A stretch of 64,000 bases of DNA from Verrucomicrobiota bacterium (GCA_016931415.1 JAFGEW010000006.1:28310-92309); one strand, 5' to 3'. Numbered from the stretch's first letter, positions 9,953 to 43,442 are shown. Notes: a model not told the origin generated them from the letters alone. Program-made: numbers and translations.

Positions 9953-11178
9953 GGGCGACTCCCCGGATCGGCTCGCCTTGCGGCGCCGGCTTCGCTTCCG
10001 GTCATTGGCGCGCGCTGGGGCAGGGCGACGCCCGCGCCGTCCTCGATCAAGTGCTGCCCGAGCGTCACAACCAGGCCGTCGAGCTGCGGCTCGAGGATCT
10101 CGATTAGGTTGCCCTCGATGATGCCGGTTGTGACGGGCACGAAGCGCGCCTTCATCTGCTCGGTGTCCACGACGAAGACGCCCTGTTTATCGTCGCGCCG
10201 GACGAGGCACGTCGCAGGGACGACAATGGCGTTGTCGTGTTCGGCGAACTGGATTCGGACCCGGGCAAACATGCCCGGCGCGAGCAGCCGCTCGGGATTC
10301 GGGATCTCGATCTCGACGCGGGCCTGTCGCGATTCCGTCTTGAGCACCGGGGCGCGGCGCACGATCTCGCCCGTGAACTCCTTGTTCGGATAGGCATCGG
10401 TGATGATGGAGATGACTCTGCCCGAGCTGATCTGCGGGAAGTCGCGCTCGATCACGTAGAGGACGGCGATCACCGAGCTGACGTCAACGATGGAGACAAT
10501 CGGGTCGTTGGCCTTGAGCATCGCGCCCTCGTCCACGAACCGCTCGGCGACTACGCGCGGCGTGTCGCCGTCGTCCCACGAGACCTCGATCTGCGTGTAG
10601 GCCAGTCGCGCGTTGGCGGCCCTGAGCTCGGCCTCCCTTTGCTTGATCTGTGCCTCCGCCACCTGCTGTTTGGCTTGGGCGGTCCGGTAGCGCGCCTCGG
10701 CCTGGTCGAGCTCAGCCTCGGAAGCTACTTTCTGCTCACGTAGCTCTTTAACGCGTTTGAAGTCGCGGTCGGCTGCGTCGAGTTCGCTGGCGGCATCAAC
10801 CAAGTTCGCCCTGCTGACGTCGAGCTGGGCCGTCGCCTGCGCCACTTGTTGGGCGTACTCCTCGCTGTCGAGCGAGGCGATCTGAGAGTTGTCCTTCACC
10901 AGGTCGCCGATGTTGACCAGCAGCTTCTCGAGCCGGCCCGGGATCTTGGGGGCGACGATGAACTGCGACTTCGGGAGCAGGCTGCCCGTGAACTCCGCGA
11001 TGTCACGGATTGTCTGTTGACGGACGGGTGTGGCCTCGATCGGCACCGCGCGCTGGCCGCGCCCGCGGTCGGAGTCCTCGTCCGCGGTTACCTTGGAGTA
11101 GATACGCCAGCCGATCAGCCCGAGAACGGCTAGAACGATAACGGCCGTGATCGCTCTCTTCATGCGTACGCCTTTCAC
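9949..11178 (-). CDS. RND efflux periplasmic adaptor (MFP/HlyD family)
   Basis: N-terminal membrane anchor, coiled-coil hairpin (AEAQIKQREAELRAANARLAYTQIEV), beta-barrel and MP domains. 4-bp overlaps with the RND and TetR genes. Confidence 0.9.
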   Translation of the reverse strand: MKGVRMKRAITAVIVLAVLGLIGWRIYSKVTADEDSDRGRGQRAVPIEATPVRQQTIRDIAEFTGSLLPKSQFIVAPKIPGRLEKLLVNIGDLVKDNSQIASLDSEEYAQQVAQATAQLDVSRANLVDAASELDAADRDFKRVKELREQKVASEAELDQAEARYRTAQAKQQVAEAQIKQREAELRAANARLAYTQIEVSWDDGDTPRVVAERFVDEGAMLKANDPIVSIVDVSSVIAVLYVIERDFPQISSGRVISIITDAYPNKEFTGEIVRRAPVLKTESRQARVEIEIPNPERLLAPGMFARVRIQFAEHDNAIVVPATCLVRRDDKQGVFVVDTEQMKARFVPVTTGIIEGNLIEILEPQLDGLVVTLGQHLIEDGAGVALPQRAPMTGSEAGAARRADPGSRP

Positions 11179-11912
11179 GTCTGTGGAGAGTCTGTGGTGC
11201 CCGGTGTGGCTGGCGCCTTCTGTCCTGCGTCTCGCGCACCCGCGTCTCGCGGGCCCGCATCCTGCGCACCCGCGTCTCGCGCACCCGCATCGTGCGTACC
11301 CGCGTCTCGCGCACCCGCATCGTGCGCACCCGCGTCTCGCGGGCCTGCGCCTCGCATGAACAGGTCCACCAACACGTCATCTCCGATAACGTCCTTGCTT
11401 CCACCCAGATTCCTGCCCCGTGCGCGCAGCAGCCCCATCAGGAAGGTGGCCAGCGTCTGGTCGGACAGACCGCTGCGGACCAGCCCTTCGAGCTGGCCCT
11501 TGCGCAGGATCCTGCCCAACGCTTCCACCAAGAGTTGGCGCTTCTCCTGCCAGCGTTGCTGTAAGTCGCTTCGGCACAGAGACATCCTGGCGTCCTCGGT
11601 CTGGATCATGCGGAAGAGCTGGCGGCGCCGTCCGAAGAAGGCCGTGATCGCCCCGCACGCCTGGAGCAACTGTTCCTCGAACGGGGCGTCGCCGACGACC
11701 CGGCGCTCGAGCAGGTCGCACAGCTCCTCGAACCCGGCGGTAGCCACCTGGAAGAACAGGTCGTCCTTGTCCTTGAAGTAGGTGTAGATCGTCCCCTTGC
11801 CGATGTGGGCCTCGTGGGCGATATCGTCGAGCGTGATCTCATGTAAGCGCTTGCTGGTGAACAGCTTCTCGGCCGCTTGCATGATCTGTTCGCGCTTGCC
11901 GGTCCTGGCCAT
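11175..11912 (-). CDS. TetR family transcriptional regulator with C-terminal pentapeptide-repeat tail
   Basis: N-terminal TetR HTH (KREQIMQAAEKLFTSKRLHEITLDDIAHEAHIGKGTIYTYFKDKDDLF). C-terminus is about 9 tandem [R/H/Q]DAG[A/T/P] pentapeptides. First gene of the efflux operon. Confidence 0.85.
   Translation of the reverse strand: MARTGKREQIMQAAEKLFTSKRLHEITLDDIAHEAHIGKGTIYTYFKDKDDLFFQVATAGFEELCDLLERRVVGDAPFEEQLLQACGAITAFFGRRRQLFRMIQTEDARMSLCRSDLQQRWQEKRQLLVEALGRILRKGQLEGLVRSGLSDQTLATFLMGLLRARGRNLGGSKDVIGDDVLVDLFMRGAGPRDAGAHDAGARDAGTHDAGARDAGAQDAGPRDAGARDAGQKAPATPGTTDSPQT
11207..11350. repeat. 15-bp tandem repeat (about 9.5 copies), coding for the TetR C-terminal pentapeptide repeats
   Basis: Units gcgtctcgcgcaccc and gcatcgtgcgcaccc alternate with minor variants. 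In frame within the tetR-like CDS. Confidence 0.85.
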
Positions 11913-11945: not shown

Positions 11946-12098
11946 TCACCCGCCGCCAGGTCCGTCAAGTGAGCACAAGCGGGATGCAGCCAGCCGGTTC
12001 GCAGCACCGGTGGCATCTCTATGACGCGTCTGATCAACCGGAGGTTTGTGCGGAAGCAGGCGGGTGCCCTGCACGGCCATTGGCAGAGAGAAGAAAAG

Positions 12099-12145
12099 CG
12101 CGCCCGACTGGACTCGAACCAGCAACCTCCGGATTCGTAGTCCGA
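12099..12145 (-). other. partial tRNA-Arg(ACG) 3' half (anticodon arm, variable loop, T-arm, acceptor 3' strand); att-like direct repeat
   Basis: rc: TCGGACTACGAATCCGG-AGGTT-GCTGGTTCGAGTCCAGT-CGGGCGCG. Aligns with the 3' half of the intact tRNA at 24535-24608. Its 13-bp flank aaagcgcgcccga is identical at both sites. No D-arm or 5' acceptor strand is present, so it is not a functional tRNA. Confidence 0.7.
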
Positions 12146-12625
12146 AAGGGCGGCCACGACACAAGTGGCCGCCCTCCGTTCTGTTACCACGTTTCCCGAC
12201 GAGAAACGCCGCACTGCAGAATGAACTCGGATGAAGTCAGGTGAACTCTGAAAGGCGCAATGAGCTCCAGAGGATGGCACAATCATGACACACAGGGCCT
12301 TTGTAACACCCGGGTGGATCCGCTTTCCCAGCGTGCTACTGGGCAACAGCTCGTTGGGCGTTCTCCTTTGTCGTCGGCCAGAGCATCTCAGTGGGTGCCC
12401 AGGCTCAGATAAGGAGATGGGAACGACATGTACTCCGACGTGACGCTGGGCGAAGTCCGCTTTATGCGTAGCTGCGGTGTCCGGGTCGGCAGCTATGTCT
12501 ACGACGAGTAGATCAAGGACGACGATCCGCGTGTGCTGGCGCTCGCGCAGGAGCCTCCGATCGTCTTCTCGGAGGGCCATGGGTGACCTGAAGAGGATCG
12601 CCGGACAGACGGCTCAGAACGACGG

Positions 12626-14842
12626 CTAACCGGCGTGCCCCTTGGTACCACCCTCAAGCATCGCCTTCAGCCCGATCTGTCGATGGAGTAGGCAAAGGAA
12701 GCGGGCACCCAGCGCCCGAAGGCTGGCTCCCGCCACGGTGCTTGCCGGGCTGACCGCAGCGGGACTTGGTGCAGTGGGGGCAAGCATGCTGAAGCCTTGG
12801 CCCGAAAGCCATCTCTGGCGGCCTGTGATCCGCTGGGTCAGTTCAGCGGGAGGGTGGGCGCATCCACGCTCCGCCAAGTGCAGCAGATCTCCCTCCAGGC
12901 CTGCCATTTCCCTTTCGACTTGGGGCGACCAGGGCGATGGCAACGACTCCGCCTCGGGCCTTTCCGAGCCCACGACATGGCTGACCTTGGTGCCGAAGAC
13001 CTGCGCGGCGAATTTCCCCACGCGTCCCGTCGGCTGCTCGAAGTAGATGTTGCAGATCTGCCCGCCCTTGTGTGGCCGTCTGCCCAGGAGGGCCAACGGG
13101 CGGATGTGGTAACCTCTGCGGTCGAAAATGATTTGCCCAACCACGCCCCATACGCCGTGCCAACGCGGCTGAACTTGCTGCAGGGCATCTATCGCAGGCG
13201 AGGCCAGGTCGTCGTAAGGCAGGGCCAGATCGACTTGGAGGCCAGACGCATCGCCTATCGGCCAGCGGAACGTCTGCGTGAGTTCGTCGTACTCCTTTCT
13301 CCCCCAGCGCGCGGGCCTGAGCAGGACCATCCCAGCCAGAGGAACTGGCAGTTCCAGCCCGACGGGGAATGCCCGAGCGGCCCTCGCGGCCAGGGCGGAC
13401 CAATCGCTGAACGAGCAGTCTCCGAAGTCTAGCTGATTCAACTGCGAGTCTTCGATGATCTGGACGCGGCACTGGGCGCTGGACGACAGGCGGTGCTGTC
13501 GGCTGCGCCGTCCGCCCGTGAGTCGAAAGCGGCGGCGGCAGAGCGTCTCGGGCGGCTGGCCCTCCAGCCATGGCGTCGGCTGACGATAGCGCTCCGTCGG
13601 AACGAACTTCGCGCCGGCGATGTGGTCCGGCCGACTCTCCGACCAGGTGTACCAGTGTTTTTCGGCCGGGCACCACGCCAGCATTGTCAAGCCGTCATGC
13701 CCTGACTTGGTTCGCCACGGCCAGCACGCTACGCCTGTGAGGTCTAGGGTCTTGAAGTCCTCGTACTGGCTTTGGAACCGCCCCACCAACTCCGGCGACG
13801 GCTGACCGTCGCAGCCAGCGATGGCATCCACCAGCGCAAAGGTCTGTCCGAGCGAAGAGAACAGCCGTCCTTCGTCCGCCTGCGCATGCCGGTCCAGAAG
13901 GAGCTCCACTTCCTCCGCCAACGACCGCAGGGCAGACGCTAGGCGAGGCAGATCGGCCCCATGAGCAGAGACCGACAGCATGTCCAGCCGCTGCCGCATC
14001 GTCGGCGACAGGTGTGACAGGCCTATGGCCATGGCATCCACCATTGCGGACCTGGCCAAATCCAGGACCTCCGAGCCGGACGGAGACAAGGCCGTGCGTT
14101 TGGGTTTGGCTGGGCCGACGGTCTGAGCATGCACTCCATGGTGACGCTGGAAGGCAAGCACCGCCGCCGCCAGGTACTTGGACTTCGATCGCTCCGGGGC
14201 GTTAGTGATCATCCCGTCCAAGGTGGCCCCGGCGAAGTAGTGGCACTGAATGCCGACGTCCTTGAAGGTCACGACGATCGATTCGCCGTCGACGACCTCC
14301 ACGTCGGCCTCCTCTTCCAGCATGGCCGCGGCATCCCGAACGGCCTTGGTCTTGGCCCACTTGATGAGTTTTTCCGGGCTGACCGCCAGCAGCTCCTCGC
14401 GGGCCTGCCCGGGCCTGACGGGAGCAGTGCCCTGCTTTCTCGCAAAGGGATCAGGAGGACTTGGGTGTGCAGCGGTTGTGGGCTGTTCAGTCGTAGGTTC
14501 GGCCGTGTCCGTCGGTGGTTTCGCCTGCGAGCTTGGCGAGCTGACGCTAAGGTGGCGTTGGAGGAACATGGTCGCGGCGAGGATGTGCCGGCAGACTCCC
14601 TGGGCGGGGCACGTGCACTTGGCGGCGACTGGGCCCGTGTAGGGCATGGAGACCGTGACCTGTCCAAGCCGAACCGTCAGGCCCTCTTCATCTGTCCCCT
14701 CGATGGCAATAACCTCGCCGGACTCCAGGTCCTTGCGAGCGCGGCGCACCAGGCCCGGGCTGGCGAGTAGCGCCAGTGCGTCGTCGTTGATCGAGGCGAG
14801 CACGCCCCGCAACGTCGTCAGCCGATTATCTTCGCCAGCCAT
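12626..14842 (-). CDS. SWIM zinc-finger domain protein (yehQ-like), uncharacterised
   Basis: 738 aa. N-terminal SWIM motif CxCx5CxH (KCTCPAQGVCRHILAATMF). Last gene of the five-gene operon and overlaps the VWA gene by 25 bp. Confidence 0.7.
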   Translation of the reverse strand: MAGEDNRLTTLRGVLASINDDALALLASPGLVRRARKDLESGEVIAIEGTDEEGLTVRLGQVTVSMPYTGPVAAKCTCPAQGVCRHILAATMFLQRHLSVSSPSSQAKPPTDTAEPTTEQPTTAAHPSPPDPFARKQGTAPVRPGQAREELLAVSPEKLIKWAKTKAVRDAAAMLEEEADVEVVDGESIVVTFKDVGIQCHYFAGATLDGMITNAPERSKSKYLAAAVLAFQRHHGVHAQTVGPAKPKRTALSPSGSEVLDLARSAMVDAMAIGLSHLSPTMRQRLDMLSVSAHGADLPRLASALRSLAEEVELLLDRHAQADEGRLFSSLGQTFALVDAIAGCDGQPSPELVGRFQSQYEDFKTLDLTGVACWPWRTKSGHDGLTMLAWCPAEKHWYTWSESRPDHIAGAKFVPTERYRQPTPWLEGQPPETLCRRRFRLTGGRRSRQHRLSSSAQCRVQIIEDSQLNQLDFGDCSFSDWSALAARAARAFPVGLELPVPLAGMVLLRPARWGRKEYDELTQTFRWPIGDASGLQVDLALPYDDLASPAIDALQQVQPRWHGVWGVVGQIIFDRRGYHIRPLALLGRRPHKGGQICNIYFEQPTGRVGKFAAQVFGTKVSHVVGSERPEAESLPSPWSPQVEREMAGLEGDLLHLAERGCAHPPAELTQRITGRQRWLSGQGFSMLAPTAPSPAAVSPASTVAGASLRALGARFLCLLHRQIGLKAMLEGGTKGHAG

Positions 14843-15975
14843 TGGGCAAGGTGCTCCGGGGTCAGGGCCGCGATCTCCATGCCGGCGGATGCCAGACGCT
14901 GCGCCATCTTGCGGTCGTACGCTGGAGTCGCCTCCTCATCGAGGGCGGCCAGTCCGATCATCTTCACGCCCGATTCCGCCAGTTGGCGGCAGACGGCCAC
15001 AAGCCGCTGGGGACTGGCGCCCTCGCAGAAATCGGTGACCAGGACCAGCACGGTCCTTCGTGGGTTGCTGATGAGTTTTGAGCAGTACAGCACTGCCTGT
15101 CCGATGTCCGTACCGCCGCCGAGTTGCACGCCCAGGAGCACTTCGATCGGGTCGCTGACGTAGCCCGTCATGTCCACGACGGAGGTGTCGAACACGACCA
15201 GCTTGACATTGACAATCGGCAGGCCCGCCAGGATCGAGGCGGTCACGGCGCTGTGGACCAGGGAGTCAACCATGCTGCCGCTCTGATCCACACAGATCAC
15301 CACGTCCCAAGGAATGTGCCGTCGCACGCGCGAGAAAAAGAGAGGGTTGTCCGCGATGATCTTGCCGAGTTGCGGGTTGTAGTTCTTCAGGTTGCGGCGG
15401 ATGGTCCCGCGGGCGTCGAAGTTCTGCGCCACCTTAAGCGGGCTGTGCTGCGTTCGATTGGCACGGCCGGTGAGCGCCCGGCGGATCTCCTTCTCCAGAC
15501 GCTGGCGGACCTGTTCCACGACGCTGCGAATGATCCGTCTGGCCTCGTCAAGCACCCGGCCCTTCATGTGGCCTTTGAACGTCAGCATTGCCTTGAGTAG
15601 ATCCATGTTGGGTTCAAGGCGCGACAACACGTCTGGATCGGTCAGGAGCTGCGTGAGGCCGTACCGTTCGATCGCGTGCTTCTCAACCACCTCCAGCGTC
15701 TGCTTTGGGAACAGGGCCTTGGCTTCCTGGAGCCACCGCGTTGCAGTGAGCTGGCTGGGATCCAGCGAGCCCGCACGGTCGCCTCCGCCAGGGCGGACGC
15801 CGCGTCCCTGGTATTCTCTCTGGTAGAGGTAATCGAGCACCTGAGCCATTCGAGACTGTGAAGCAGACAGCGGCGAGGAAATGGCTCGCTGGGCGTACCG
15901 CCCCAGGACCAGACGCCACCGCGATAGCGCAGCCTGAGCGTTCATGAGGGTGTGCCCTCCGGCGACTGGACCCAT
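14818..15975 (-). CDS. von Willebrand factor A (VWA) domain protein with complete MIDAS
   Basis: 385 aa. MIDAS DQSGSM (DxSxS), plus GGGTDIG and LVTDFCEG. N-terminal helical region as in MoxR-associated VWA proteins. Confidence 0.8.
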   Translation of the reverse strand: MGPVAGGHTLMNAQAALSRWRLVLGRYAQRAISSPLSASQSRMAQVLDYLYQREYQGRGVRPGGGDRAGSLDPSQLTATRWLQEAKALFPKQTLEVVEKHAIERYGLTQLLTDPDVLSRLEPNMDLLKAMLTFKGHMKGRVLDEARRIIRSVVEQVRQRLEKEIRRALTGRANRTQHSPLKVAQNFDARGTIRRNLKNYNPQLGKIIADNPLFFSRVRRHIPWDVVICVDQSGSMVDSLVHSAVTASILAGLPIVNVKLVVFDTSVVDMTGYVSDPIEVLLGVQLGGGTDIGQAVLYCSKLISNPRRTVLVLVTDFCEGASPQRLVAVCRQLAESGVKMIGLAALDEEATPAYDRKMAQRLASAGMEIAALTPEHLAQWLAKIIG

Positions 15976-18440
15976 CTGCTCAGTTTCTGCTGGTTCAGGG
16001 CGGCCGCCACGGCCTGGGAAATCCGCACGTGCAGTGCCATGTCCTGTTCAGTCGTCTCGTGGTGCACCAGTTCACCCAGATCGGCCTGACCGTGCATCTG
16101 TGCAACGGCCTCGGCGACCTTGTCGATCTCGCGCGGAGTCAGGTCGGCAAACGCCAACCTGAGTTCGGGAAGCGCCAGCAGAAACTCCTCTTCATCCCAT
16201 CCATCCAGCAGCTCAGTGAGCCGCTGGAGCAGGCGGGAGGATCGCCACGCCGCCTCCCGACAGGTCGCCAGCAGTCCGCGGACAAACGCAGTCCTGCCGG
16301 TGCGGTCGGCAGTCGCAGCATTGAGCGTCCCGGCCAAGTACCGCAGAAGGTCGTCCTCCGACAACTTGTCTTGGCCATAGAGGACGCCTGCGGCGGCACC
16401 GAACACGGCCGCATGACGGTGGCGCGAAGAGACGATCTCCCGTAGGGACCGCTCGAACAACGCCGCGTCGAACTGCGCCTGGCCGGCACTGGCCACGATG
16501 TCGCGCAGGGAGGCGATGGCCCGAACTGTGGGTCCGACCTCTGATTCAGTGATGTTGGCCAAGTCCCCCAGGACGTAACAGGCCTTGGTGTAGATAGCTT
16601 GGGCTAAGTCATGGACCAGCGCAAGATCGCCCGCCTCCAGTGTTTGCCTGGCCTGCCGGAGAAGTAGTAGCTGCTCCAGACCGGTGACGAGCGAATGCAG
16701 GGCCGGGTCCTCGGCGATCTCTTCCTTCAAGAGCCGCCCGATCTGGGCCACGGAGTCCTGCAGGCCCATCTGGCAGGCTCGCATGAGGAGGGACACAATC
16801 TCCAGCGTGCAGCGTCCCCGTCCTTGCTCTTCCAGCTTCAATATCGCTTGCCGAAGCCTCGAGAGGGCTGCCTGCTCAAGCGTCTCACCATGCACGGACT
16901 CCTCGATCAGGCGCCCCTCGGCGGCAGGTGACCAGGCATAGCGCCACTGCTCCTGAATCAGTTCGACGTCGACGCCGGCCGAGAAGTCTGCGCCACGGAG
17001 GAGCGACGCGAACGGCACGCCCAGGAAGGTCAGCTGGTTGAAGAACCGGCTGGTGCGGCGGTGGGATGGTTTTCGATAAACGTCGAGGACCACTTCCTTG
17101 GCGAGCGAGTCGTCGATCTTGAGCCCCAGTCTTGCGGCTGAACGGCGAAAGTCATCGACAAGCGGCGGCACACCCGCTTCCGGGGCGACGCGACCGGCGG
17201 ACCATCCCGAGAGCACCTGCCGGGCCAGGCCCATGACTACCGTCCCCTCGGTGTCCATGGCGCCGGGCACGAAGCAGCTCCGCATGGCGTCCAGCACATC
17301 CTCGCGAGTCGGCGAGCCATGCCCTCGAACCTGAGCCAACCGCCGCGCCTGGGCCATCGCCGTTATCTCGTCGGCTGCTGAGATCGTCACCGCAAGGTTC
17401 TTGTCCCGGATGAACTGGCCGACCTCTACGACCATCTTGCCTGCCGCCTCCAGCAGCGGCGAGGGGCTGCCAGCATTCATGAGTTTCCAGACCGAGTCGT
17501 AGTATGCCGGAAGCGGCATTCCGGCCCCGTAGCCGTTCAGCGCGTCGAGTTGGTCGAAGCTGTAGGCCATCAGGCAGGTGGTTGTCTCCTCGCTGGCAAA
17601 CGTGTGCCCGTCCGCGGGTGCGGATGTGTGTCTGCCTCGGCGGTCATGCACCATGTCCGGCAGGGCCGCCGTGTGGAACCCGCCGGTGACCACGACGATC
17701 GGCGCATCGCCTTGTGCGGCCATCTCTTCGAGAACGGCCCCGGCCATCGCCCGCTCCCTCGCAATGGTCCCGTCCAGATGCAGCACACGGGCGTCCTGAC
17801 TGGCCCGGGCCAGCAGGCAGTAGGCAGCCACACGGCGGACAAACGTGTCCGTATCAAGCTCGGTACACCCCACCTCGAAGAGGTGGTCCCACAGTTCGTC
17901 CGAGTCGCGGCAGCCATTTCGTTGCGCCAAGGCCCGCACGTACTGGCTGCTGCGAAGGTAGCTCTCTTCCAGCAGGGCCGTTATCTGCACGCTGGCGGAA
18001 GGACTGCGCGTCCGTTTGTCGGCCAGGACTTGGCTCGGGAATGTCAGGTCGATAAACCGCAGCCTTGCCCCCAACTCCGTGCCGATGCGCAAAGCGACCA
18101 GTTCCGGCGAGTAGTCGCACATGGGGTAGTAACCGGCAAATCGCGGGGGCAAGTCGGATTTCTCGCTGCCCGGCAGCTTGACGCGCCGGGCCTTGTCGAT
18201 GTATGTGGAGAAGGCGGCGATGGGCGTTCGTGTCTGGGGACTCACAATGCATGGAATGAGGGCCGTCAGGTCAGAGGGCCCCTCGATCAGGACGGCACGC
18301 GGCTGCACTTGGCGCAGGAGGCGCGCCAGGTGCCAGGAGCAGGCCGGGCTGTGGTGCCGGATGGGAAAGAAATAGAGCCCCTGGAACGACAGGCGTTCCT
18401 GCAGATGGGCGATCTCCTTTTCCGGGACGAACTCCTGCAC
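15942..18440 (-). CDS. large uncharacterised protein (position-equivalent to yehM/DUF5682-type proteins)
   Basis: 832 aa, no recognisable catalytic motif. Conserved gene position between the AAA ATPase and VWA genes. Overlaps the VWA gene by 34 bp. Family assignment is from memory of this gene neighbourhood, not verified. Confidence 0.55.
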   Translation of the reverse strand: MQEFVPEKEIAHLQERLSFQGLYFFPIRHHSPACSWHLARLLRQVQPRAVLIEGPSDLTALIPCIVSPQTRTPIAAFSTYIDKARRVKLPGSEKSDLPPRFAGYYPMCDYSPELVALRIGTELGARLRFIDLTFPSQVLADKRTRSPSASVQITALLEESYLRSSQYVRALAQRNGCRDSDELWDHLFEVGCTELDTDTFVRRVAAYCLLARASQDARVLHLDGTIARERAMAGAVLEEMAAQGDAPIVVVTGGFHTAALPDMVHDRRGRHTSAPADGHTFASEETTTCLMAYSFDQLDALNGYGAGMPLPAYYDSVWKLMNAGSPSPLLEAAGKMVVEVGQFIRDKNLAVTISAADEITAMAQARRLAQVRGHGSPTREDVLDAMRSCFVPGAMDTEGTVVMGLARQVLSGWSAGRVAPEAGVPPLVDDFRRSAARLGLKIDDSLAKEVVLDVYRKPSHRRTSRFFNQLTFLGVPFASLLRGADFSAGVDVELIQEQWRYAWSPAAEGRLIEESVHGETLEQAALSRLRQAILKLEEQGRGRCTLEIVSLLMRACQMGLQDSVAQIGRLLKEEIAEDPALHSLVTGLEQLLLLRQARQTLEAGDLALVHDLAQAIYTKACYVLGDLANITESEVGPTVRAIASLRDIVASAGQAQFDAALFERSLREIVSSRHRHAAVFGAAAGVLYGQDKLSEDDLLRYLAGTLNAATADRTGRTAFVRGLLATCREAAWRSSRLLQRLTELLDGWDEEEFLLALPELRLAFADLTPREIDKVAEAVAQMHGQADLGELVHHETTEQDMALHVRISQAVAAALNQQKLSRWVQSPEGTPS

Positions 18441-18449
18441 GCTCTTGCC

Positions 18450-19583
18450 TCAGACATCCAGAAGGCCTCGGGCCTCATAGAAGCTCCTCCAGCTGCTTCC
18501 CAGGCGGAGCCTCGACTTGACAACCACGTCGAAATACTGACGCACCTTCTTGGCGTCGTCGGGGGAGTCTTTGATCACCGTGCCCAGAAGCTGCCGCACC
18601 AGGTGCTCGCTTCGTACGCGTCCGTCGCCCAGGTAACAGGCGTCCAAGGCGGCCGAGAACGCCACCGATACGGCCTCTGCCGTAGACATAGGCGTGGAAG
18701 GCCGGTCCACGACCGTCCCCTCGGCCGTGCGACCGTTGCGAAGATCCTGAAACGCCGTGACCAGCATGTCGACCACATCCTGCTCAATCCTCGCCTGCGC
18801 CCCGGCATCGGCCAGCAGGCTTTGCGCCTGCTCCATCACCAGACGCACCTCGAAGTCCTTGTCGCGGATAGGACGGACCGTCTCGAAATTGAACCGCCTC
18901 TTCAGCGCCGAGGACATCTCGTTCACGCCGCGGTCGCGGGTATTGGCCGTGGCGATGATGTTGAATCCCTTTTTGGCCAGCACCAGCGAGTGGCCGTCGC
19001 CCAGTTCCGGAACTTGCATCATCTTGTCCGACAGGATGCTCACCAGAGTGTCCTGGATCTCCTGCGGACAGCGCGTCATCTCCTCGAAGCGGACAATCAG
19101 TCCCTCCTTCAGACCTATGTATAACGGCGAAGGCACCAGGGCCCTGGGGCTGGGCCCCTCGGCCAGCAGCAGAGCGTAGTTCCACGAGTATTTGATCTGG
19201 TCTTCCGTCGTCCCGGCCGTACCTTGGATCGTGTTGGTGGATTGGCCGCAGATCGCCGCCGAGAGCAATTCCGACAGCATGGTCTTGGCAGTGCCCGGCT
19301 CGCCGATGAGGATGAGCCCGCGATTGCCCATCAGCGTGACGACGCAACGGTCCACCAGCATGTCGTCGCCGTAGAGTTTGCGAGGAATGGCGATCGGCTG
19401 CCCCGAAGGCGACGGAAGCTTCCTGCCGTCCGAACCGATGATGAACGTCCGCACGGCCTTAGGAGACAATTGCCAGCCAGGAGGCCTGGGGTCCTTGTCA
19501 GCCGCTTTCAAGGCCGCCAGTTCCTCGGCAGATCGTTGCTCCGCTGGTTCGCGGACTACGGTGCGGTCAGCTTGTAGTGCCAT
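18450..19583 (-). CDS. AAA+ ATPase, MoxR/AAA_5 (dynein-related) subfamily
   Basis: Walker A GEPGTAKT, Walker B-like LIVRFEEMTRCP (Glu in place of the usual Asp), sensor-1 NIIATANT, Arg-finger region ALKRRFNF. Confidence 0.85.
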   Translation of the reverse strand: MALQADRTVVREPAEQRSAEELAALKAADKDPRPPGWQLSPKAVRTFIIGSDGRKLPSPSGQPIAIPRKLYGDDMLVDRCVVTLMGNRGLILIGEPGTAKTMLSELLSAAICGQSTNTIQGTAGTTEDQIKYSWNYALLLAEGPSPRALVPSPLYIGLKEGLIVRFEEMTRCPQEIQDTLVSILSDKMMQVPELGDGHSLVLAKKGFNIIATANTRDRGVNEMSSALKRRFNFETVRPIRDKDFEVRLVMEQAQSLLADAGAQARIEQDVVDMLVTAFQDLRNGRTAEGTVVDRPSTPMSTAEAVSVAFSAALDACYLGDGRVRSEHLVRQLLGTVIKDSPDDAKKVRQYFDVVVKSRLRLGSSWRSFYEARGLLDV

Positions 19584-19626
19584 GCCATGAGTCCTTCATA
19601 CTACGTCGATGTCCAGATCATTCGCT

Positions 19627-22600
19627 CTACCATTGGCTGGACTTCTTCTCCCAATCCGGATCGAAACCCGTTCCCGTCTGGGCCATCTGACGAATGTCGT
19701 TGTAGCACTCGCTCAGGAGGACCGCGGGGACCTCCTCCAGCGGGATGCCGGCGCTCATGCTCCAGTAGTTGACCTTCTCGGTCGTCCGACTGAATGACAG
19801 GGCCAACAACGCCACGAGACAATTGGTCTCGGGCAGACTGTTGCCCGTGAATTCGATGTTGGCTTGGAGCCCCAGTGCGGGAAACTGCTTGGTGTAAAGA
19901 ACGAACACGCCGCCATCCTCGGCTCGCCCGCGGCTGTAGCCGAGCTTGGCGGCCGCCCCGCGCAGCTTGAATGCCTCGATCATGCAGCCTTTGAAGTCTT
20001 CAATCTGGATCCGACGTCGGGTCTCCTCGCTCAAGGCATAAGGAGATCGCCCGAACTGCTGGAAGAGCGCATCCACCTTGTAGTCGGTTAGGTGGATTGT
20101 CCACTTCTGCCCAAGGTCCGGCGACACGTTGCACGTATGCGCCACCCGAACTACGGCATCTGCGGGCACGGTCACCGCTTCATCGTTCACGCCGCTCAGG
20201 GACCTGTCCTCCAGGGGTCGGAAGGTCGTCAACAACACCCCATCCGTGAAAGCTGCCCACACCAATCGCTGGCAACAGCGGCCCACGATTGGGTGGCGGT
20301 GCAGATAGCGGTCCCAGTCGTCGAACACCCATATCCGTTGCGTACACATTGCCTCATACAGGCGGTCCTTCTGCAGACGCAGGACGGCCGCCAACTCCTT
20401 CTTAGCGGCGGAGAAGGCGGCCTTGGCCTTCTTGTACGCCTCCTCCTGCTCGTCCTGGCGCCGGGCTGGAAAGGCCCTGACCGATTTGCCATCAGCCCTG
20501 ACCAGCTCCAAGTCAAGATTGCCGGAAAGGCGCATGGTGAGCTGACGCGGCCCGGCATCAAGCACCGCCTGGCCCGTGTCATCCAGGCCCGCGGTGGGAA
20601 TCGTCCGGTCCGCGAGTTCGTCACGAGTCCAGTTCTTTCGCTGGGCCAGCGCCTGGGCCACGGCATCGGCTTCCTTGCGGATGCCTGCAGTTCGGAAGCG
20701 ATTGGCAACCGACAAGACCAACTGTGTTGCGGAGGCATGCTCCACCCAGGCGAGCATCCGGATCAACGCCTTGCATTGGGCGGCGCGGTAGCCGTACCAG
20801 GTCTTGAGATACTGCTCGACGGGCGCGGACGCACCGGGACCGCAGCAGGCGGCGGCGACCGCCAGCACGCCCCTCTCCTTGACGGCACTCCCGGCAGGTT
20901 GGCGAAGCAGGCCGGGAAGCAGTGTCTGGAAGATGTCCTCTTCCGTTTGTGTCTTGTCGTAGGAGGCCCACATCTTGGCCTGTTGGCGCGCTCTGGCGAT
21001 GGCCTGTTCTCTGGGAATCGGTATCGTGTCCTTTCCGATCCAGTTCTCCAGCACCCATTGGCCGAGACGTTCCGCCTCGTCCTTCCTGAACCATTGCGCG
21101 TACCGCCGAAGCATGGGCGATGGCTCAGGGTCGCCCACCTTGTAGGCCTTCACGATCATCCATGCCAGGATCTCTCGATCTACCATCTGGCCGCTGTCGG
21201 CCCAATGGACCGGAGGAACCAACTGCACTTGGACCCAATCGAGGCCGGCTGGCATGCCTTTGGCCAGGCCGGCCTTGGCTTCGGCGATCAGCCCGGCACG
21301 GTCCAGGAACTCGTCCACCGGGACGGCCATGGCCTCAAGGGCAGACATCATGGCCGCCTTCGCCAGCTCGCTCTTCTCCTTCTTCAGGGCCTTCTGAAGC
21401 TCAGGTACCGCTTGGCGCGCCTTCAGTTCTCCGAGCCATTCGGCGGCACCCGCACGCTCTCCCTGCCGGCCGGACGACAATTCCTGGATGATCCGCTCCT
21501 CCTTGCCGGGGCATCGCTCCAGAGCCTTCTGGGCTTCAAGACGCTCGCTCTTGCCGGCGCCCAACGCCGTTTCCCAGAGCCGCGGCGCCAACTGCGGCGG
21601 GACCTGAGGCATGGCCGCCAGCACCGCATAGGCCTTGGAGCGCCTGATGTTGTACCAGTAGTCGTACTGCCCCTTAGGTGCGAAACACTCCTCGATAAGA
21701 TGAATCCGCTCCCAGAAATACTGCCATGCTTGCGACGGGTCTCTCTGCCAGTAGTTGAGACTGCCGGACAGTGCATCGTGGCCAACCATGTCATCGGAGA
21801 CGCCAACAACGCGCAGCGCGGCCGCAACGTACCTGAGGTCCTGAGTCTGGTGGTGCGAACGGAACCACTCATCCACCAGGTCGTCACCGAGTAGGTTGAA
21901 CTGCCAGACACCGTTTTTGTCCCGGTTGATGTCGCCCGTCAGGCGCATCAACCGCAGCAAGTGAACCAACTGGATGTCAGGGTGCGCGGCGATGCTGCGA
22001 AGCGCTTGCGGATAGCGCAGGTACCTCGCCGCCTGCATCTCGTCGCCGACCCTAAGAGTCTGCATAGTCTGAACAACCCCGTCCAGCCAGCCCCAAGGGG
22101 CCGCCTTAGGCTCGTTACCGTACCATCGCTGCCTTGATTTCTTGGCCTTTTGGCAGGCGGCTATCTGCTGTTGGATTGCCTGCTCGATGGCCTCTCTGAC
22201 ATGCGCACGAAGGGAGTCCGAGACCTTCGGACAGGAATCCACCGCAGGCACCGGCGGGAGCTCGACGGCAGACGATTCCGGAGACGCCGGTGAGGCCGCC
22301 GGCGAAGCAGCGGCGGGGCTCAGGAGTCGCTCGATCGCCTTCTTGACTCTGGGAGAGGTCTCTGCCTCGAGCCGCTGTCGGAGCAGGTCTGCGGAAGGGT
22401 CGCAGCCCAGTTGGTCGGCCAGCGCTAGGGCATGTAGCCTTTCTTCCGGCTGTCCTTCCACGAACTTCCGCAGGATCAGCGGCTTGGCCGCGTCCTTGAA
22501 CTTGACGACCAGGAGATTGGCGGCCTGGCGGACCGTCTTGGCGGAGTCGACAGCGGCATCGACCAGCTCCACCGTAAACGGAGCCATGTCAAGCTGCCAT

Positions 22601-23313
22601 TTGGCCAACAGGGTCAGCGCGTGGACGCGCCGCGGCGCCTCCGCTTGCGTCATTGCCGCTCGGATGACGTCGGGATAGCGGCACACAAGCGCACTCAAAC
22701 CCGGAATCCGCTCGATGAGTGAGTTGTGGAGATACGCATTGCTGCCGTGAGGGTCCATCCACAGGGCGAATTTGGCGAGCAGCGAGGTGTCTTCGCCCGC
22801 CACGGCGAGCATCTGTTCGACCAAGTCAGCCGCCAGCGTCCTCAGCGGTGGCTGTCGATGTCCGTAGTAGTACTGGCCTCCTGTCAATTCTTGAACGTAC
22901 ACATCCAGCCAGACCGGGGCGCCGGGAATCCAATCCAGAAGCAGCTGCTTACGGTCGCGATAGCTGACTGCCTCATATATCTTCGCAAGCCGGACGTAAT
23001 GGACGGGTTCCAGTCCTTCAAGAGCAAGAAGCATGCGTTGGCGTTTTTCGAGGCGTTTGCAGGGATACCGGGGGTTGCAGCAAGCGACCTCAAAATCCAC
23101 GCCCGCGCCTGCAGGCAGCCCCGCCAAGTCCCCGAGCACCGACTCATCCTGGCCGGTTGCCAGATACTGCATCGCTCGTCTGGGCCGGTCGCGGCCGTGA
23201 CGGCTCAGAAAGGCCAGATCCTCCGCGATCTTCGCAGACGCCGAGCCCGTAAGTGGTCTGGTCCCCTGATCGCCATCACGTGGTCCCAGGATCTTTCGAA
23301 GCCAGTCTAGCAT
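19627..23313 (-). CDS. giant alpha-solenoid protein with HEAT-like repeats and C-terminal DUF4132-like domain (yehI/MolR-like)
   Basis: 1228 aa. PBS-lyase/HEAT-like repeat (ERAGAAEWLGELKARQAVPELQKALKK). C-terminal region WVFDDWDRYLHRHPIVGRCCQRLVWAAF...FKGCMIEAFKLRGAAAKLGY matches my recollection of the DUF4132 family. First gene of the operon. Confidence 0.6.
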   Translation of the reverse strand: MLDWLRKILGPRDGDQGTRPLTGSASAKIAEDLAFLSRHGRDRPRRAMQYLATGQDESVLGDLAGLPAGAGVDFEVACCNPRYPCKRLEKRQRMLLALEGLEPVHYVRLAKIYEAVSYRDRKQLLLDWIPGAPVWLDVYVQELTGGQYYYGHRQPPLRTLAADLVEQMLAVAGEDTSLLAKFALWMDPHGSNAYLHNSLIERIPGLSALVCRYPDVIRAAMTQAEAPRRVHALTLLAKWQLDMAPFTVELVDAAVDSAKTVRQAANLLVVKFKDAAKPLILRKFVEGQPEERLHALALADQLGCDPSADLLRQRLEAETSPRVKKAIERLLSPAAASPAASPASPESSAVELPPVPAVDSCPKVSDSLRAHVREAIEQAIQQQIAACQKAKKSRQRWYGNEPKAAPWGWLDGVVQTMQTLRVGDEMQAARYLRYPQALRSIAAHPDIQLVHLLRLMRLTGDINRDKNGVWQFNLLGDDLVDEWFRSHHQTQDLRYVAAALRVVGVSDDMVGHDALSGSLNYWQRDPSQAWQYFWERIHLIEECFAPKGQYDYWYNIRRSKAYAVLAAMPQVPPQLAPRLWETALGAGKSERLEAQKALERCPGKEERIIQELSSGRQGERAGAAEWLGELKARQAVPELQKALKKEKSELAKAAMMSALEAMAVPVDEFLDRAGLIAEAKAGLAKGMPAGLDWVQVQLVPPVHWADSGQMVDREILAWMIVKAYKVGDPEPSPMLRRYAQWFRKDEAERLGQWVLENWIGKDTIPIPREQAIARARQQAKMWASYDKTQTEEDIFQTLLPGLLRQPAGSAVKERGVLAVAAACCGPGASAPVEQYLKTWYGYRAAQCKALIRMLAWVEHASATQLVLSVANRFRTAGIRKEADAVAQALAQRKNWTRDELADRTIPTAGLDDTGQAVLDAGPRQLTMRLSGNLDLELVRADGKSVRAFPARRQDEQEEAYKKAKAAFSAAKKELAAVLRLQKDRLYEAMCTQRIWVFDDWDRYLHRHPIVGRCCQRLVWAAFTDGVLLTTFRPLEDRSLSGVNDEAVTVPADAVVRVAHTCNVSPDLGQKWTIHLTDYKVDALFQQFGRSPYALSEETRRRIQIEDFKGCMIEAFKLRGAAAKLGYSRGRAEDGGVFVLYTKQFPALGLQANIEFTGNSLPETNCLVALLALSFSRTTEKVNYWSMSAGIPLEEVPAVLLSECYNDIRQMAQTGTGFDPDWEKKSSQW

Positions 23314-23379
23314 CCGAATGTCTCACGGGAGCGTTCTTGGAATGCCCCAGGAAGAAGCCGATAGGGTCGCATACCAGCC

Positions 23380-24182
23380 GCTCGTCCGCGCGAGTATAGC
23401 ATGGCCAGGCGGCGTCGTCTCTAGCGCGTTTGTAGTGTGGCGAGGCTCGGGCAGAAGCAGCAGGGCGAGCATGAGGTTTTGGTGCACCGAGCGGCTCGAC
23501 GAACTCGGGCCCGTCTACTTTGTGGGCCGACGGTGTCCACGTCAAGGCCGGGCTCGAGAAAGGCAAGGCGGCCTTGCTCGTGGCGATCACCGGATGCGCC
23601 GACGGACGCAAGCGGCTTGTGGCGCTCGTGGCCGGCCCGTGTGAGTTGGAAGCGACCTGGTCGGCCGTGCTGCGCGATCTGAAGCGGCGCGCGCTTCGCT
23701 GTCCCAAGCTCGTCGAGAGCGACGGCCACTTAGGCATCTGGGCCGGGCTCCGAAACGTCTATCCCGACGCGTCCGAGCGCGGACCTCCGGTCCGATGCGC
23801 TGCTGGAACCATCGGATCCTCAACGTGCTCGACAAGGTGCCAAGCGGTTCCAGGCCCAGGCGAGGCTGCAGCTCAGGCAGATCCGTATGCCGACAGCGAG
23901 CGCGAGGCGTTGCGGCTTTGCGAGCACTTCCAGGCGTCGTGCCACACGCACGAGCTCGACGACGCGGCCGCGCTGCTCGAGCGCGACTGGGACCGTATGG
24001 TGACGTTCTGTCGCTTCCGCCGCGAGCACTGCACGCATCTGCGCACCACCAACGTTGTTGAGTCGCCGTTCGGCGCGCTGCGACTCTGCACCCCGCCTGG
24101 CGGGGCCAAGCGTTTCAAGAATGTCGAGAACGCAGCCGCCGTCATCTTCAAGATGCTCCAGGAGGCCGAGACGGAGTTCTGA
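23380..24182 (+). pseudogene. IS256/Mutator-family transposase remnant (N-terminally truncated, at least 2 frameshifts)
   Basis: Three reading frames carry consecutive transposase segments: RFWCTERLDELGPVYFVG; then HVKAGLEKGKAALLVAITGCADGRKRLVALVAG...LVESDGHLGIWAGLRNVYPDAS; then RCWNHRILNVLDKVP (frame shift); then HLRTTNVVESPFGALRL....AAAVIFKML. No intact ORF and no inverted repeats identified. Confidence 0.7.
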
Positions 24183-24534
24183 CGCTTCAACACCCCGGAG
24201 TTGCCGCGTGAAGTCGTCCTCGGCGCCCAGTTCAAAGACGGACTACGAGTGCAACGCAACCTTCAGGCGGCCGCCGCCAAGAACCTGTCTAGACACCCAT
24301 TTGCCGAGACCTTCGCATGGACCAGAAAAGATGACACATCAATGACACATGCCAAGGGGATCCGTTGCCCGCAACTGGAAGCCTGATTGGGTCGAACTCA
24401 CTTACCGAGAGGCCGCTGGTGCGAGCGGAGGAAAACGACGGCGGCCTCTGATGCCCGGACTGAGATTCCGGGAGAAGCAGGAAAGGCGAAGACAGGTGAA
24501 GCCGGAAGCCCCTATACGGCAAGGCATGGGAAAG

Positions 24535-24608
24535 CGCGCCCGAGAGGGTTCGAACCTCTAACCTTCGGATCCGTAGTCCGACGCTCTATCCATTTGGGCT
24601 ACGGGCGC
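24535..24608 (-). tRNA. tRNA-Arg (anticodon ACG)
   Basis: rc: GCGCCCGTAGCCCAAATGGATAGAGCGTCGGACTACGGATCCGAAGGTTAGAGGTTCGAACCCTCTCGGGCGCG. 7-bp acceptor stem, anticodon arm TCGGA-CTACGGA-TCCGA, T-arm AGAGG-TTCGAAC-CCTCT, discriminator G. CCA not encoded. Confidence 0.9.
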
Positions 24609-25730
24609 GCCGCTTCGCGGCGCGTTGGCAGTTCGGTGTAGCCGAACTGCAGCGCGTCCGGGGCATGGTTCGTCGAGGCCGAACCATGTTGTTGTTCTGT
24701 TGCTTCGCGGCGCGTAGAGAGTCCGGTCGTGCCAGACTCCGGTGCGCCGATAAGCGTCCCGCGCCTGCGGCCTGAGACGTGCCGCGGGCGCGGGCAAGCG
24801 GGGGATGTATACACGCTGACGGCGCGGGGCGCAAGCCCTTTTCACGGCGACCGGGGGCAGGTACAGGCGCACAGTGGGCCCCCCGCCGGTGCCGGGCGCG
24901 AGGCGGGCCTGCACCCAATGGGGCGCCTCGGGCTGGCCCGCCTATGGCCAGAGGCGCGCAGCGCTCCGTTCCGACGGGAGAACGACACCACAGCGGCAAG
25001 GGAGAAGGGATGGGTCCGCGACCGACCTCTTCCTGAATCGATGTCGGCAGGCCGATTGTCCGAGGAGCTGGCAGCAGTGGCCTGGGTGGCATACTGCGAC
25101 GTGAGCCGGTCCATGACAACGAGTTCGAGTCGGCGCCTCAAGGTGGTCGGCCGCGCGCGCCTTCGGCTTTGCGCCAACCACGTCGGATCGTCTCGATCCG
25201 CGCCGCGCGCCGGTCCCGCTCCCGGCGGGGCTCAAGGATCGTTTCGGTTTCGATCCCTCGCGCGGGGGGGGGGGGCGCATCGCTCGCATCCTGCTGCGGC
25301 TCTCTGCACGTCAAGCTGGCGAGCGGATAGTGCCCACAAGCCCTGAGAACGGCAGGCACAAAGAAGGAGCTTCCGGAGAGGGCGTTTCGTCTGCCTGTAC
25401 GACCGTATGCTGCAACAGCGCCGCCTGCGGCGTGTTACGCAATCGGCCTGAGTTGAGTTCGCGGTCCGACGGATCATGGACATGGGGATCTCATTGGCAC
25501 CTTGTCCCCGAGCTCAGGACGTTGGCCGTTGACCTTTCGCTAGCTGATCGTGCACCGATCGTGATAGAATGGCGGGTAAGGGAGGACATTCGGGGAGAGG
25601 GCATTGACCCAGAGCACACGAACGGGAGGCTTGATCCAACCCACTCGTTCTTGACCAGTGCGGTGAGAAACCCGGAGAGGTCTTTTCTGGATCACTGGGG
25701 CGTGAAGGATGATGAAGGGAGGCAGAGAAA

Positions 25731-26114
25731 ATGGAACTGATTGACACATTGACAAAGCAGCTTGGGATTACAGAGGAGCAGGCGAAAGGCGGTAGCGGTC
25801 TTCTGTTCAAGCTGGCAAAGGAGAAGCTGGGCGGCGAGGACTTCGGCAAAGTAACGAGTGCGATCCCCGATGTGGGTGCTCTCATCTCTTCCGTGCCGAA
25901 AGCCGGCGGACTCGGAGGACTCGTTGGTGGCCTCACCTCCTCGCTTGGAGGATCCGCGGGCAAGCTGGGTGATCTCGCCGGACTTGCAGGCGGCTTCTCG
26001 AAGCTCGGTCTTGACTCGGGCATGGTGGGGAAACTCGTTCCCCTCATCCTGTCCTTTGCCCAGTCGAAGGGCGGAGACGCCGTTAAACAGATCCTGGCGA
26101 AGGTGCTCAAGTAG
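25731..26114 (+). CDS. DUF2780-like small protein
   Basis: 127 aa with the pattern MELIDTLTKQLGITEEQAKGGSGLLFKLAKEKLG...LGGLVGGLTSSLGG...LGLDSGMVGKLVPLILSFAQSKGG. Strong SD GGGAGG upstream. Confidence 0.6.
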   Translation: MELIDTLTKQLGITEEQAKGGSGLLFKLAKEKLGGEDFGKVTSAIPDVGALISSVPKAGGLGGLVGGLTSSLGGSAGKLGDLAGLAGGFSKLGLDSGMVGKLVPLILSFAQSKGGDAVKQILAKVLK

Positions 26115-26500
26115 GACACGCTCGCGCAGTCATTGATGTGATTGCGGGTTCGTTGTGTTTTGACGTAGTCGCGATCCGCGTGGGAACGCGGGACGTCGTC
26201 TCCAGTTCTCGTCGTAACAGCGTGACGGCCCGGGCGCGTCGTTCAGTGTCGCACCGAGCAAGGGAATGTCCTTCCAGACGGCAGTCTTGTTGAGCTGAGT
26301 GTGTGCGGCGCCGAACGGCAGTGCGGAATGAGGGGTGCCGCCGGCTCGGTGGCAAGCAAGCTCTGTGTCTTGGTCCGGCGCGTGCGCTTCTCGTTGACGC
26401 GCGCGATGAAGTCAGTTGCGCGCAGGCGCTTCCATTGGCGGTGCTGGAAGCGACAGGAGGTCGGCCCCGCGAGGACGCGAGGCTTTCTCGGTGCAGCGGT

Positions 26501-29014: not shown

Positions 29015-29584
29015 GGGCAGCCTGGAAGCCTTCAGCAGAACTGGGGGTGTGGTGGCCCGGAATCAGGTTGCGGGTCTCAGCCCCGCGGTCCGTGTGCTGC
29101 GTCCCTTGTCCTTCAGCCCTCGTCCTTGCCTCGTCCGTGCCTTGAGCCGTGCACGCCTTGTGAGGATGGAGTCGCGGCGACCGAGGCACGCGTCATCCGC
29201 TGTGATGTTCGCCAACGCCCAATGATAGCACCTCTCGGCACAATGAGCCAGGGAGTCCGGGAGGTCTTTTCGACCTCGGCCACCGCTTGCAGGAAGCCTG
29301 GCTGCGCCAACCTTCAGCGCGCCGGGTGTCGGGGGCCTGTTGTGTGCTGCGGGCTTGCGGGTCGCAAGCCCTTTGCGCTGTCTTGTGGATGGCTTCGCCG
29401 CGCCGCGTCCAGCCCGGCGTTGACACCCCCTTGGCGATGTTGAAGAATCCGTGCCGACGCCGTGACGGACCACGCACCGAGAAGAGAAGGCGATATTGCG
29501 CTGGCCCATTCCGGCGGCCGCCGGGTCGTGCCGACGCGGCGAGGAGATAGCCGTGCCACGTTTCTTCGAGAGGGAGAGACTCGT

Positions 29585-29947: not shown

Positions 29948-29987
29948 CAAGGGACGCGTGGTCCGAGTCCGCGAAAGGAGGGCGGAG

Positions 29988-30632: not shown

Positions 30633-30732
30633 CAGCGCGGCGCCCTGGCTGGGCGTTCAACCCGGTTGTCGATCTGATCGTTCAACAGTCGTGCCTCAAC
30701 AGCCAGCCGCATCATCGTCAAGGGAGCGCTCC

Positions 30733-33569: not shown

Positions 33570-33584
33570 GAGGGCGCCGCCTTC

Positions 33585-34655: not shown

Positions 34656-34667
34656 GATGCTCGGCAG

Positions 34668-43436: not shown

Positions 43437-43442
43437 GGTTGT

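Follow-up and report, generated by a model that had tools for sequence, protein, structure and literature searches.

The window analyzed here is a stretch of 64,000 nucleotides (64 kb) from a Verrucomicrobiota bacterium (GCA_016931415.1, JAFGEW010000006.1:28310-92309), in which an insert of 12.4 kb lies between an intact tRNA-Arg(ACG) gene and a displaced fragment of the 3' part of such a gene. In the direction of the tRNA, from high to low coordinates, the insert opens with a non-coding stretch of about 235 nt that comprises regions A and B, followed by the remnant of an insertion sequence (IS), a five-gene operon, the stump of a sixth gene, a second conserved non-coding region (B'-C'), a hairpin and the tRNA fragment. 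Our findings suggest that this arrangement is the trace of a genomic island that integrated at the tRNA gene and later decayed. The features are given below in the same order, with attL and attR denoting the attachment sites at the two ends, and P' and P the putative arms next to them.

24535 to 24608, minus strand: intact (regenerated) tRNA-Arg(ACG), attL side (Rfam tRNA, 61.7 bits; ARAGORN)
24572 to 24581, minus strand: 10-nt block TCGGACTACG, the same at both ends, putative crossover region at attL
24425 to 24534, minus strand: region A, conserved and non-coding, directly 3' of the tRNA, putative P' arm (blastn, 60-79% identity; alignment)
24300 to 24372, minus strand: region B, with a core of two direct TGTGTCAT 8-mers 11 bp apart at 24330-24349
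23430 to 24290, plus strand: IS256-family (Transposase_mut) pseudogene (Pfam PF00872, positions 181-340 of 379; phrog_2331 transposase)
19627 to 23313, minus strand: cargo gene 1, HEAT/DUF4132 protein of 1228 aa, YehI-like (Pfam; 26% identity to YehI)
18450 to 19583, minus strand: cargo gene 2, MoxR-type AAA_5 ATPase, YehL-like (Pfam; 49% identity to YehL)
15942 to 18440, minus strand: cargo gene 3, DUF5682 protein, YehM-like (Pfam; 26% identity to YehM)
14818 to 15975, minus strand: cargo gene 4, VWA_CoxE protein, YehP-like (Pfam; 45% identity to YehP)
12626 to 14842, minus strand: cargo gene 5, SWIM zinc-finger protein, YehQ-like (Pfam; 28% identity to YehQ over the N-terminus)
12419 to 12623, plus strand: stump of a convergent sixth gene (HEAT and DUF4132), its last ~70 codons, frameshifted (tblastn, 67-80% identity in two frames)
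12208 to 12330, minus strand: region B'-C', second copy of the B module, putative P arm, with TGTGTCAT / TGTGCCAT at 12273-12292 (71% identity to positions 296-381 of the related locus L073)
12147 to 12177, no strand assigned: perfect 10-bp GC hairpin GGGCGGCCAC-ttgtgtc-GTGGCCGCCC, abutting the tRNA fragment at the end of the inserted DNA, terminator-like on the plus strand
12098 to 12145, minus strand: displaced native 3' part of tRNA-Arg, attR (46/47 identical to the clade tRNA), followed by native flank and TetR
11175 to 11912, minus strand: TetR regulator, the first host gene past the island, heading an efflux operon of TetR, membrane fusion protein (MFP), resistance-nodulation-division (RND) pump and outer membrane factor (OMF) genes (Pfam)

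ARAGORN calls two tRNA-Arg(ACG) genes in the window, at 24534-24608 and 12098-12172, both on the minus strand, of which the first alone is a real gene. At the second position the ARAGORN model pairs 5 of 7 bases in the acceptor stem and has a D stem of two pairs, the Rfam tRNA model stays below its threshold, and the sole Rfam match is to tRNA-Sec at 29.5 bits, which is also subthreshold; the 5' part of this call is an unrelated hairpin and not tRNA. Annotation pipelines would consequently count two tRNA-Arg(ACG) genes here, as ARAGORN took the fragment for a full tRNA, and it is documented that displaced fragments can be wrongly annotated as tRNA genes (PMC9897764). The fragment itself is 48 nt long and covers the 5' strand of the anticodon stem, the loop, the variable region, the T arm, the 3' strand of the acceptor stem and the discriminator base, together with TTT. 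It has the same orientation as the intact gene and lies in register with it at a spacing of 12,436 bp. A preliminary description of this DNA had already recognized the intact gene and a partial copy of its 3' half in the same orientation, and both are real; the copy extends over 12098-12145, and its identity to the intact gene, put at about 75% over 12099-12145 in that description, is 39/48 (81%).

The two copies are identical in TCGGACTACG, which represents the loop and the 5' strand of the anticodon stem, and in TCGGGCGCGC plus TTT. The T stem holds five of their nine differences and keeps its pairing in both (AGAGG/CCTCT against GCTGG/CCAGT); these compensatory changes indicate that both copies descend from functional tRNAs of different lineages and not from a recent duplication. 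Because the fragment is identical at 46 of 47 positions to the tRNA-Arg of related uncultured bacteria (the clade type), we identify it as the displaced native 3' half. By sequence comparison, the intact gene carries an imported 3' part at index 38-74 (24535-24571), while index 1-28 is presumed native. Relative to the clade tRNA, the intact gene differs at 15 of 75 positions, 10 of which are located 3' of the anticodon, and an uninterrupted target site (attB) reconstructed from tRNA index 1-28 and the fragment folds into a normal cloverleaf. The 13-mer AAAGCGCGCCCGA, found at 12095-12107 and 24531-24543 and nowhere else in the window, had been described as an identical flank of both copies. 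The identity is confirmed, but the sequence is hardly a flank: 10 of its 13 bases are the acceptor-stem 3' strand and discriminator, leaving just 3 nt of true flank.

The site without the insert was recovered from relatives, as the preliminary description had proposed to check. A degenerate pattern for the 5' half of the tRNA, scanned against metagenomes, gave 21 loci, nine of which carry the clade-type tRNA-Arg, with identical 5' halves and variation in the T arm alone. A relative, L072, joins the 5' flank of the window, a whole tRNA-Arg and TetR within a single contig of 2.2 kb: it corresponds to window positions 24843-24516 (5' flank and tRNA) and continues directly into TetR (84.7%) and MFP (82.6%) genes, while the 3' half of its tRNA matches window positions 12144-12096 at 98% identity and is collinear into TetR. 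Similarly, in L066 a whole tRNA-Arg is followed by TetR (82%) and MFP/RND (83.7%) genes. Both loci show the uninterrupted pre-insertion site. The arrangement in the window is also found in an independent Logan assembly of SRR13394437 (L001), which spans the window from about 24589 to about 8850, that is, from the interior of the tRNA to the RND pump, so a contig that is chimeric at the tRNA is unlikely. Exact-protein look-ups of the flank genes returned Logan contigs of SRR13394437 only, and the assembly is confirmed.

Within the insert, the five cargo genes are co-directional, tightly packed and collinear with yehI, yehL, yehM, yehP and yehQ of Escherichia coli K-12 (blastp, 25-49% identity), and their Pfam assignments support the five-gene operon reported earlier. 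The degraded IS256-type transposase is likewise borne out by Pfam, PHROG and a frame read-out, in which the first ~180 codons are gone and frameshifts and an internal stop are present. The earlier reading of this remnant as a further mobility scar needs refinement: it is absent from L056 (JGI 3300056903), the closest operon relative, where 75 nt stand in place of window positions 23429-24424, and it therefore represents a later, secondary insertion into the island and no trace of the island's own movement. As for a composite transposon, the single truncated IS256 copy at 23430-24290 has no second copy at the other end. The stump of the sixth gene was recognized using the L058 and L057 proteins as tblastn queries, and the gene is whole in L057, L058/59 and the P0004 contig, where it encodes 985-988 aa.

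No integrase was detected, in agreement with the preliminary description. Searches by tblastn with two integrases of the clade found no tyrosine recombinase anywhere in the 64 kb, a hidden Markov model (HMM) built from 53 integrases and run against all open reading frames (ORFs) of at least 50 aa in the same 64 kb gave a best E-value of 2.9, and no remnants of the integrase or excisionase of L056 were found in the window. Pfam identified no serine recombinase among the five genes and the remnant ORFs, a result obtained with no dedicated search for serine recombinases. PADLOC gave no defense-system match for any of the five cargo proteins, and a literature search on the operon families returned nothing informative. 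A prophage or phage satellite was considered and rejected: no structural, replication or packaging genes of phages were seen, and the PHROG matches were to families of unknown function only and were traced to the chromosomal yehP flank in a VT1-Sakai prophage record. In scans of viral contigs, the L056 integrase found matches of at most 44% and the tRNA 3'-half pattern found none.

The distribution of the operon indicates that it is not tied to one locus, since its contexts differ among relatives. For the DUF5682 protein, six relatives are 81-91% identical and the next best reach 48% or less, and the operon occurs in at least four further genomic contexts among relatives that are 77-89% identical. 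In L056, which matches window positions 23428-12553 at 89% nucleotide identity, a full tRNA-Arg lies 300 nt upstream of the operon, with homologous region A and no IS; in the L057, L058/59, L055 and P0004 contigs, other genes and no tRNA are found upstream. Homologous clusters also occur on large plasmids of other phyla (Streptomyces, rhizobia and others). The compositional comparison suggested earlier, for which the flank sample is only 50 kb, gave a divided result. GC content at third codon positions (GC3) is 0.76-0.79 in 5/5 cargo genes versus 0.81-0.93 in 14/16 flank genes, and tetranucleotide correlations between the island and the four other window segments are 0.79-0.88, compared with 0.95-0.98 among those segments; overall GC content, however, is equal.

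Conserved non-coding modules are present at both ends of the insert. Region A is common to L056, L065, L068/L080 and L073, and the region B core lies 186 nt from the 3' end of the tRNA, a spacing that matches L065 and L073 (+186). On the opposite side, the core of region B'-C' is placed 127 nt upstream of the displaced tRNA fragment. A TGTGTCAT pair with 11-bp spacing occurs twice in the 64 kb, both times on the same strand, with 0.01 occurrences expected by chance, and we infer that these pairs could serve as arm-type binding sites in the P' and P arms, for which such a layout is expected. Rfam and RNAalifold analyses of regions A-B revealed no RNA family and no covariation support.

We interpret these observations as a yehI-yehLMPQ-like island that was integrated at tRNA-Arg(ACG) by recombination of the tyrosine-integrase type and then decayed to a fixed, integrase-less state, a reading to which we assign a probability of about 0.78. 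The integration at a tRNA 3' end that the preliminary description had claimed is supported by the empty site, and it fits with the relative orientation of the copies, a fragment that begins at the anticodon stem, the lack of an integrase and the deviating GC3 and tetranucleotide usage. As no integrase lies in the 64 kb, the mechanism is read from its scars only. An element carrying the operon would have integrated site-specifically, with the crossover falling within TCGGACTACG of the anticodon stem-loop (the 'A' class); we place it there because the fragment begins at the anticodon stem and TCGGACTACG is the only long identity at that position. A replacement 3' half from the element would have restored a working tRNA at attL (24535-24608), and the native 3' half would have been displaced by 12,436 bp to its present place beside TetR at attR (12098-12145). 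The decay that followed is visible in the sequence: an IS256-family element entered the stretch that separates the operon from the tRNA-proximal arm and was itself truncated, and a deletion took nearly all of the sixth gene, leaving 70 codons. That deletion could plausibly also have removed an integrase/excisionase module. The island is plausibly immobilized; both ends retain an att-like architecture, which leaves a small probability of mobilization in trans.

Several observations weigh against this interpretation. With a crossover in the anticodon loop, the 5' half of the intact tRNA should be native, yet at five positions (12, 16 and 26-28) it agrees with none of the nine clade tRNAs, and a C12-A23 mismatch in the D stem is among these changes. 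They may be lineage drift, which is possible given that the clade tRNAs vary among themselves by at most 4 of 75 positions, or they may be the trace of a second event. Neither the island nor the rest of the 64 kb contains an integrase, excisionase or transfer gene. In L056, an excisionase-like HTH_17 gene and a gene for a 337-aa tyrosine integrase (355-1867) are located 5' of the tRNA-Arg and are transcribed divergently from it, in an atypical order; the integrase thus lies on the 5' side of the tRNA and outside the side that bears the operon, and it may belong to a separate 5'-side island. The B module consists of ~120 nt of diverged homology at both ends, whereas typical arm sites are shorter, and A-B-C is contiguous in L073, whose B-C part is 71% identical to the attR-side copy versus 60% to the attL-side copy; the locus may have a more complex history, for instance one of related elements in tandem that later underwent a deletion. 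Finally, the equality of overall GC content between island and flanks counts on the same side, as does the lack of strong phyletic discordance: relatives of the host V-ATPase A are 84-92% identical and then drop to 72%, a pattern like that of the operon. Given this similarity, the operon probably circulated within a family-level clade and did not come from far away.

The main alternative is that no site-specific integration took place and that two tRNA-Arg(ACG) loci, one of the form tRNA-A-B-operon and the other tRNA-TetR-efflux, were fused by an illegitimate deletion or rearrangement with an endpoint in the anticodon stem of the second tRNA. The four combinations of flank and content at tRNA-Arg imply several loci or recombination at the tRNA, the contiguous A-B-C of L073 is followed by ordinary two-component genes, and a deletion endpoint is demonstrably near, at the sixth-gene stump. 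We nevertheless disfavor such a fusion and regard it as improbable, because in L072 the very 5' flank of the window is linked to a whole tRNA and TetR, exactly as predicted for the pre-insertion site, and because the breakpoint coincides with the canonical anticodon-stem boundary, as in the unrelated locus L062 and as is typical of islands; tRNAs with the same anticodon that differ at 15/75 positions within one genome would also be unusual. An ancestral operon, inherited vertically beside tRNA-Arg and bracketed by coincidence, with the fragment as the scar of an older and nearly deleted element, is less probable still. The tRNA-A-operon adjacency shared with L056 would fit such a history, as would the equal overall GC and the divergence of the operon (81-91%, with a gap to 48%), which mirrors that of V-ATPase A. 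However, DNA between a regenerated tRNA and a displaced fragment came with or after the integrating element, TetR directly follows the tRNA in L072 and L066, four further relatives carry the operon at other loci, and the cargo stands apart in GC3 and tetranucleotide usage.

A chance or low-complexity match as the origin of the partial tRNA copy, a possibility raised in the preliminary description, has a negligible probability. The 13-mer alone is indeed weak evidence, with 5 of 100 shuffles giving at least two matches at no more than one mismatch, but the 46/47 identity of the fragment to the clade tRNA-Arg, its register and orientation, and the collinearity with L072 into TetR refute such an origin. 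The remaining alternative shares the integration event and differs in its outcome: the island would be a cis-mobilizable element (CIME) that is still mobile in trans, so that a cognate integrase, encoded by a related tRNA-Arg element elsewhere in the genome or arriving with another element, could excise it or co-mobilize it by tandem accretion. The concept is established (PMC6323972), and both att-like ends are kept here with the conserved TGTGTCAT pair; the clade has related tRNA-Arg elements that encode tyrosine integrases, and the operon with region A adjoins tRNA-Arg in L056 too. Against this, the core copies are only 81% identical outside the 10-nt block, the IS remnant disrupts the tRNA-proximal arm 240 nt from the core, and the distal arm abuts the deletion, which makes continued mobility rather unlikely in our judgment. 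We give the same small chance to the broader proposal that the island is a non-autonomous, CIME-like member of an undescribed tRNA-Arg(ACG)-specific family in uncultured bacteria of the Planctomycetes-Verrucomicrobia-Chlamydiae (PVC) group, in which the integrases of sister elements would move the yehLMPQ-like operon in trans. That family would share a conserved attP architecture, in which region A is present and an anticodon-loop core has paired TGTGTCAT arm sites to either side.

Beyond the history of this particular insert, the varied DNA found after the same tRNA-Arg, including an integrase gene, identifies tRNA-Arg(ACG) as a hot spot of integration or recombination in the clade. In L069 (7832-9199) and L079, a gene for a 416-aa tyrosine integrase lies 43 nt past tRNA-Arg(ACG) on the opposite strand, which is a classic tRNA-integrase island in a relative; this integrase is 26% identical to that of L056. 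After tRNA-Arg, L073 has regions A-B-C and then two-component genes, and L068/L080 have region A and then unknown and methyltransferase genes. Altogether, five distinct downstream contents follow the clade tRNA-Arg, and all four pairings of 5' flank type and 3' content occur (L072, L073, L065 and L066). In L062 (1633-2770), which is unrelated and AT-rich, a direct repeat longer than 115 nt follows tRNA-Arg(ACG) at a distance of 1.0 kb; the repeat begins at tRNA position 27/28, the same sublocation as the fragment in the window, runs beyond the terminator, and is a mini-island or a remnant of one.

Other observations concern the surroundings of the tRNA. In L075 (88-126; metagenome contig Ga0315545_1018736), the tRNA-Arg is of the clade type, has a 5' flank like that of the window and breaks off right after the anticodon loop (..CTACGAA|CTCAACCC..). 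A group I intron as the cause of the break found no Rfam match in the 89 nt to the contig end, and the break may represent an attL without restoration of the tRNA or a break in the assembly. Upstream of the tRNA in the window, at 24609-24660, an inverted repeat (cagttcggc...gccgaactg) and a ccgcgaagcgg motif are kept in L072, L073 and L075 and are probably the promoter or leader region of the tRNA. The 5' side of the tRNA is variable as well. The window has 10 kb there (24660-34660), comprising genes for DUF2780, an 837-aa HerA-like ATPase, a 295-aa ORF, PMT_2, an EEP nuclease and a URO-D-like product, while in L068 and L075 PanE is only 2.1-3.6 kb away from the tRNA and the intervening DNA is unrelated. 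The HerA-like ATPase has weak PADLOC matches to mad8/HerA and a GC3 of 0.705; it was tried as an anchor for the empty site and rejected as accessory, its best non-self homologue being 62% identical. A genome scan with the RND pump was set aside too, as its best relatives, at 76% protein identity, were too distant and none had tRNA-Arg beside the efflux operon. The nearest relatives of the efflux genes are in metagenome-assembled genomes (MAGs) of Planctomycetota. Further out, a gene at 383-2071 (plus strand) encodes a permease of the MacB/FtsX type in which DNA-binding-like domains (HTH_25/HTH_31) separate the periplasmic core domain from the FtsX domain, an unusual combination that was also called in the independent assembly. 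Core-type flank genes are located at 40932-47299, 47724-48977 and about 2886-3443 (V-type ATPase subunits A, I and C, hypD and efp).

In summary, this locus offers a fully bracketed, integrase-less island in a poorly known uncultured lineage, with its pre-insertion site recovered from metagenomes. Island finders that depend on an integrase would overlook such an island, and the integrase filter of Islander would reject it. The placement of a yehI-yehLMPQ-type operon among mobile cargo gives a small hint of its accessory nature, and a further result is the recombination hot spot at tRNA-Arg(ACG) in the clade. The current understanding of genomic islands is unaltered, as this is an ordinary decayed island of a well-known type.

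Comparison with known systems places each component of the locus in context. The remnant resembles the IS256 family in its recognizable central and C-terminal transposase region. Unlike IS256 elements, it is 5'-truncated, frameshifted and single, forms no composite transposon, and cannot account for the tRNA repeat. The cargo resembles the yehI-(yehK)-yehL-yehM-yehP-yehQ cluster of E. coli K-12, with the same five families in the same order (DUF4132, MoxR AAA+, DUF5682, VWA-CoxE and SWIM), whereas the island has no yehK and the relatives studied here add a convergent sixth HEAT/DUF4132 gene. The E. coli cluster is chromosomal, lies beside metG and has no tRNA repeats; the operon in the window is bracketed by tRNA sequences. 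Islands integrated into tRNA genes (tDNAs) are understood here as defined in Islander (see also Williams 2002).

As a whole, the island is similar to the CIMEs described in Streptococcus and other genera (ICEberg 2.0, PMC6323972), which are bounded by attL and attR and have lost their integration and transfer genes. This island is also without integration and transfer genes, and integrase-bearing elements at the same site exist in its relatives. It differs in that its host belongs to the PVC group and not to the Firmicutes, that no parent integrative and conjugative element (ICE) or integrative and mobilizable element (IME) was identified, and that its attL and attR are candidate sites. There is also a correspondence with the tDNA islands of Islander (Hudson, Lau & Williams 2015). 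In that scheme, of which the present pattern would be the textbook product, recombination by a tyrosine integrase between a tRNA attB and an attP that carries a tRNA-like 3' segment splits the target, the island restores it, and the far end is recognizable by the displaced fragment; the canonical sublocations at which fragments start are the anticodon loop, the T loop and the T/acceptor junction (PMC4383910). Anticodon-centered sites, the most common sublocation, account for 2083/3919 islands and 3' fragments for 3760/3919, leaving 5'-side islands as a minority class (159/3919; PMC4383910). Unlike these islands, the one described here contains no integrase gene, and all that is left inside it is one operon, an IS remnant and the stump of a gene. 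In its remaining properties, it follows the 'A' class: an intact, regenerated tDNA and a cognate displaced 3' fragment lie in the correct, direct orientation on the same replicon, the fragment starts from a canonical sublocation (the 5' strand of the anticodon stem, with the 10-nt identical block), the imported 3' half differs from the native one, the uninterrupted site is found in the related L072 and L066, and the same tRNA gene has been used repeatedly.

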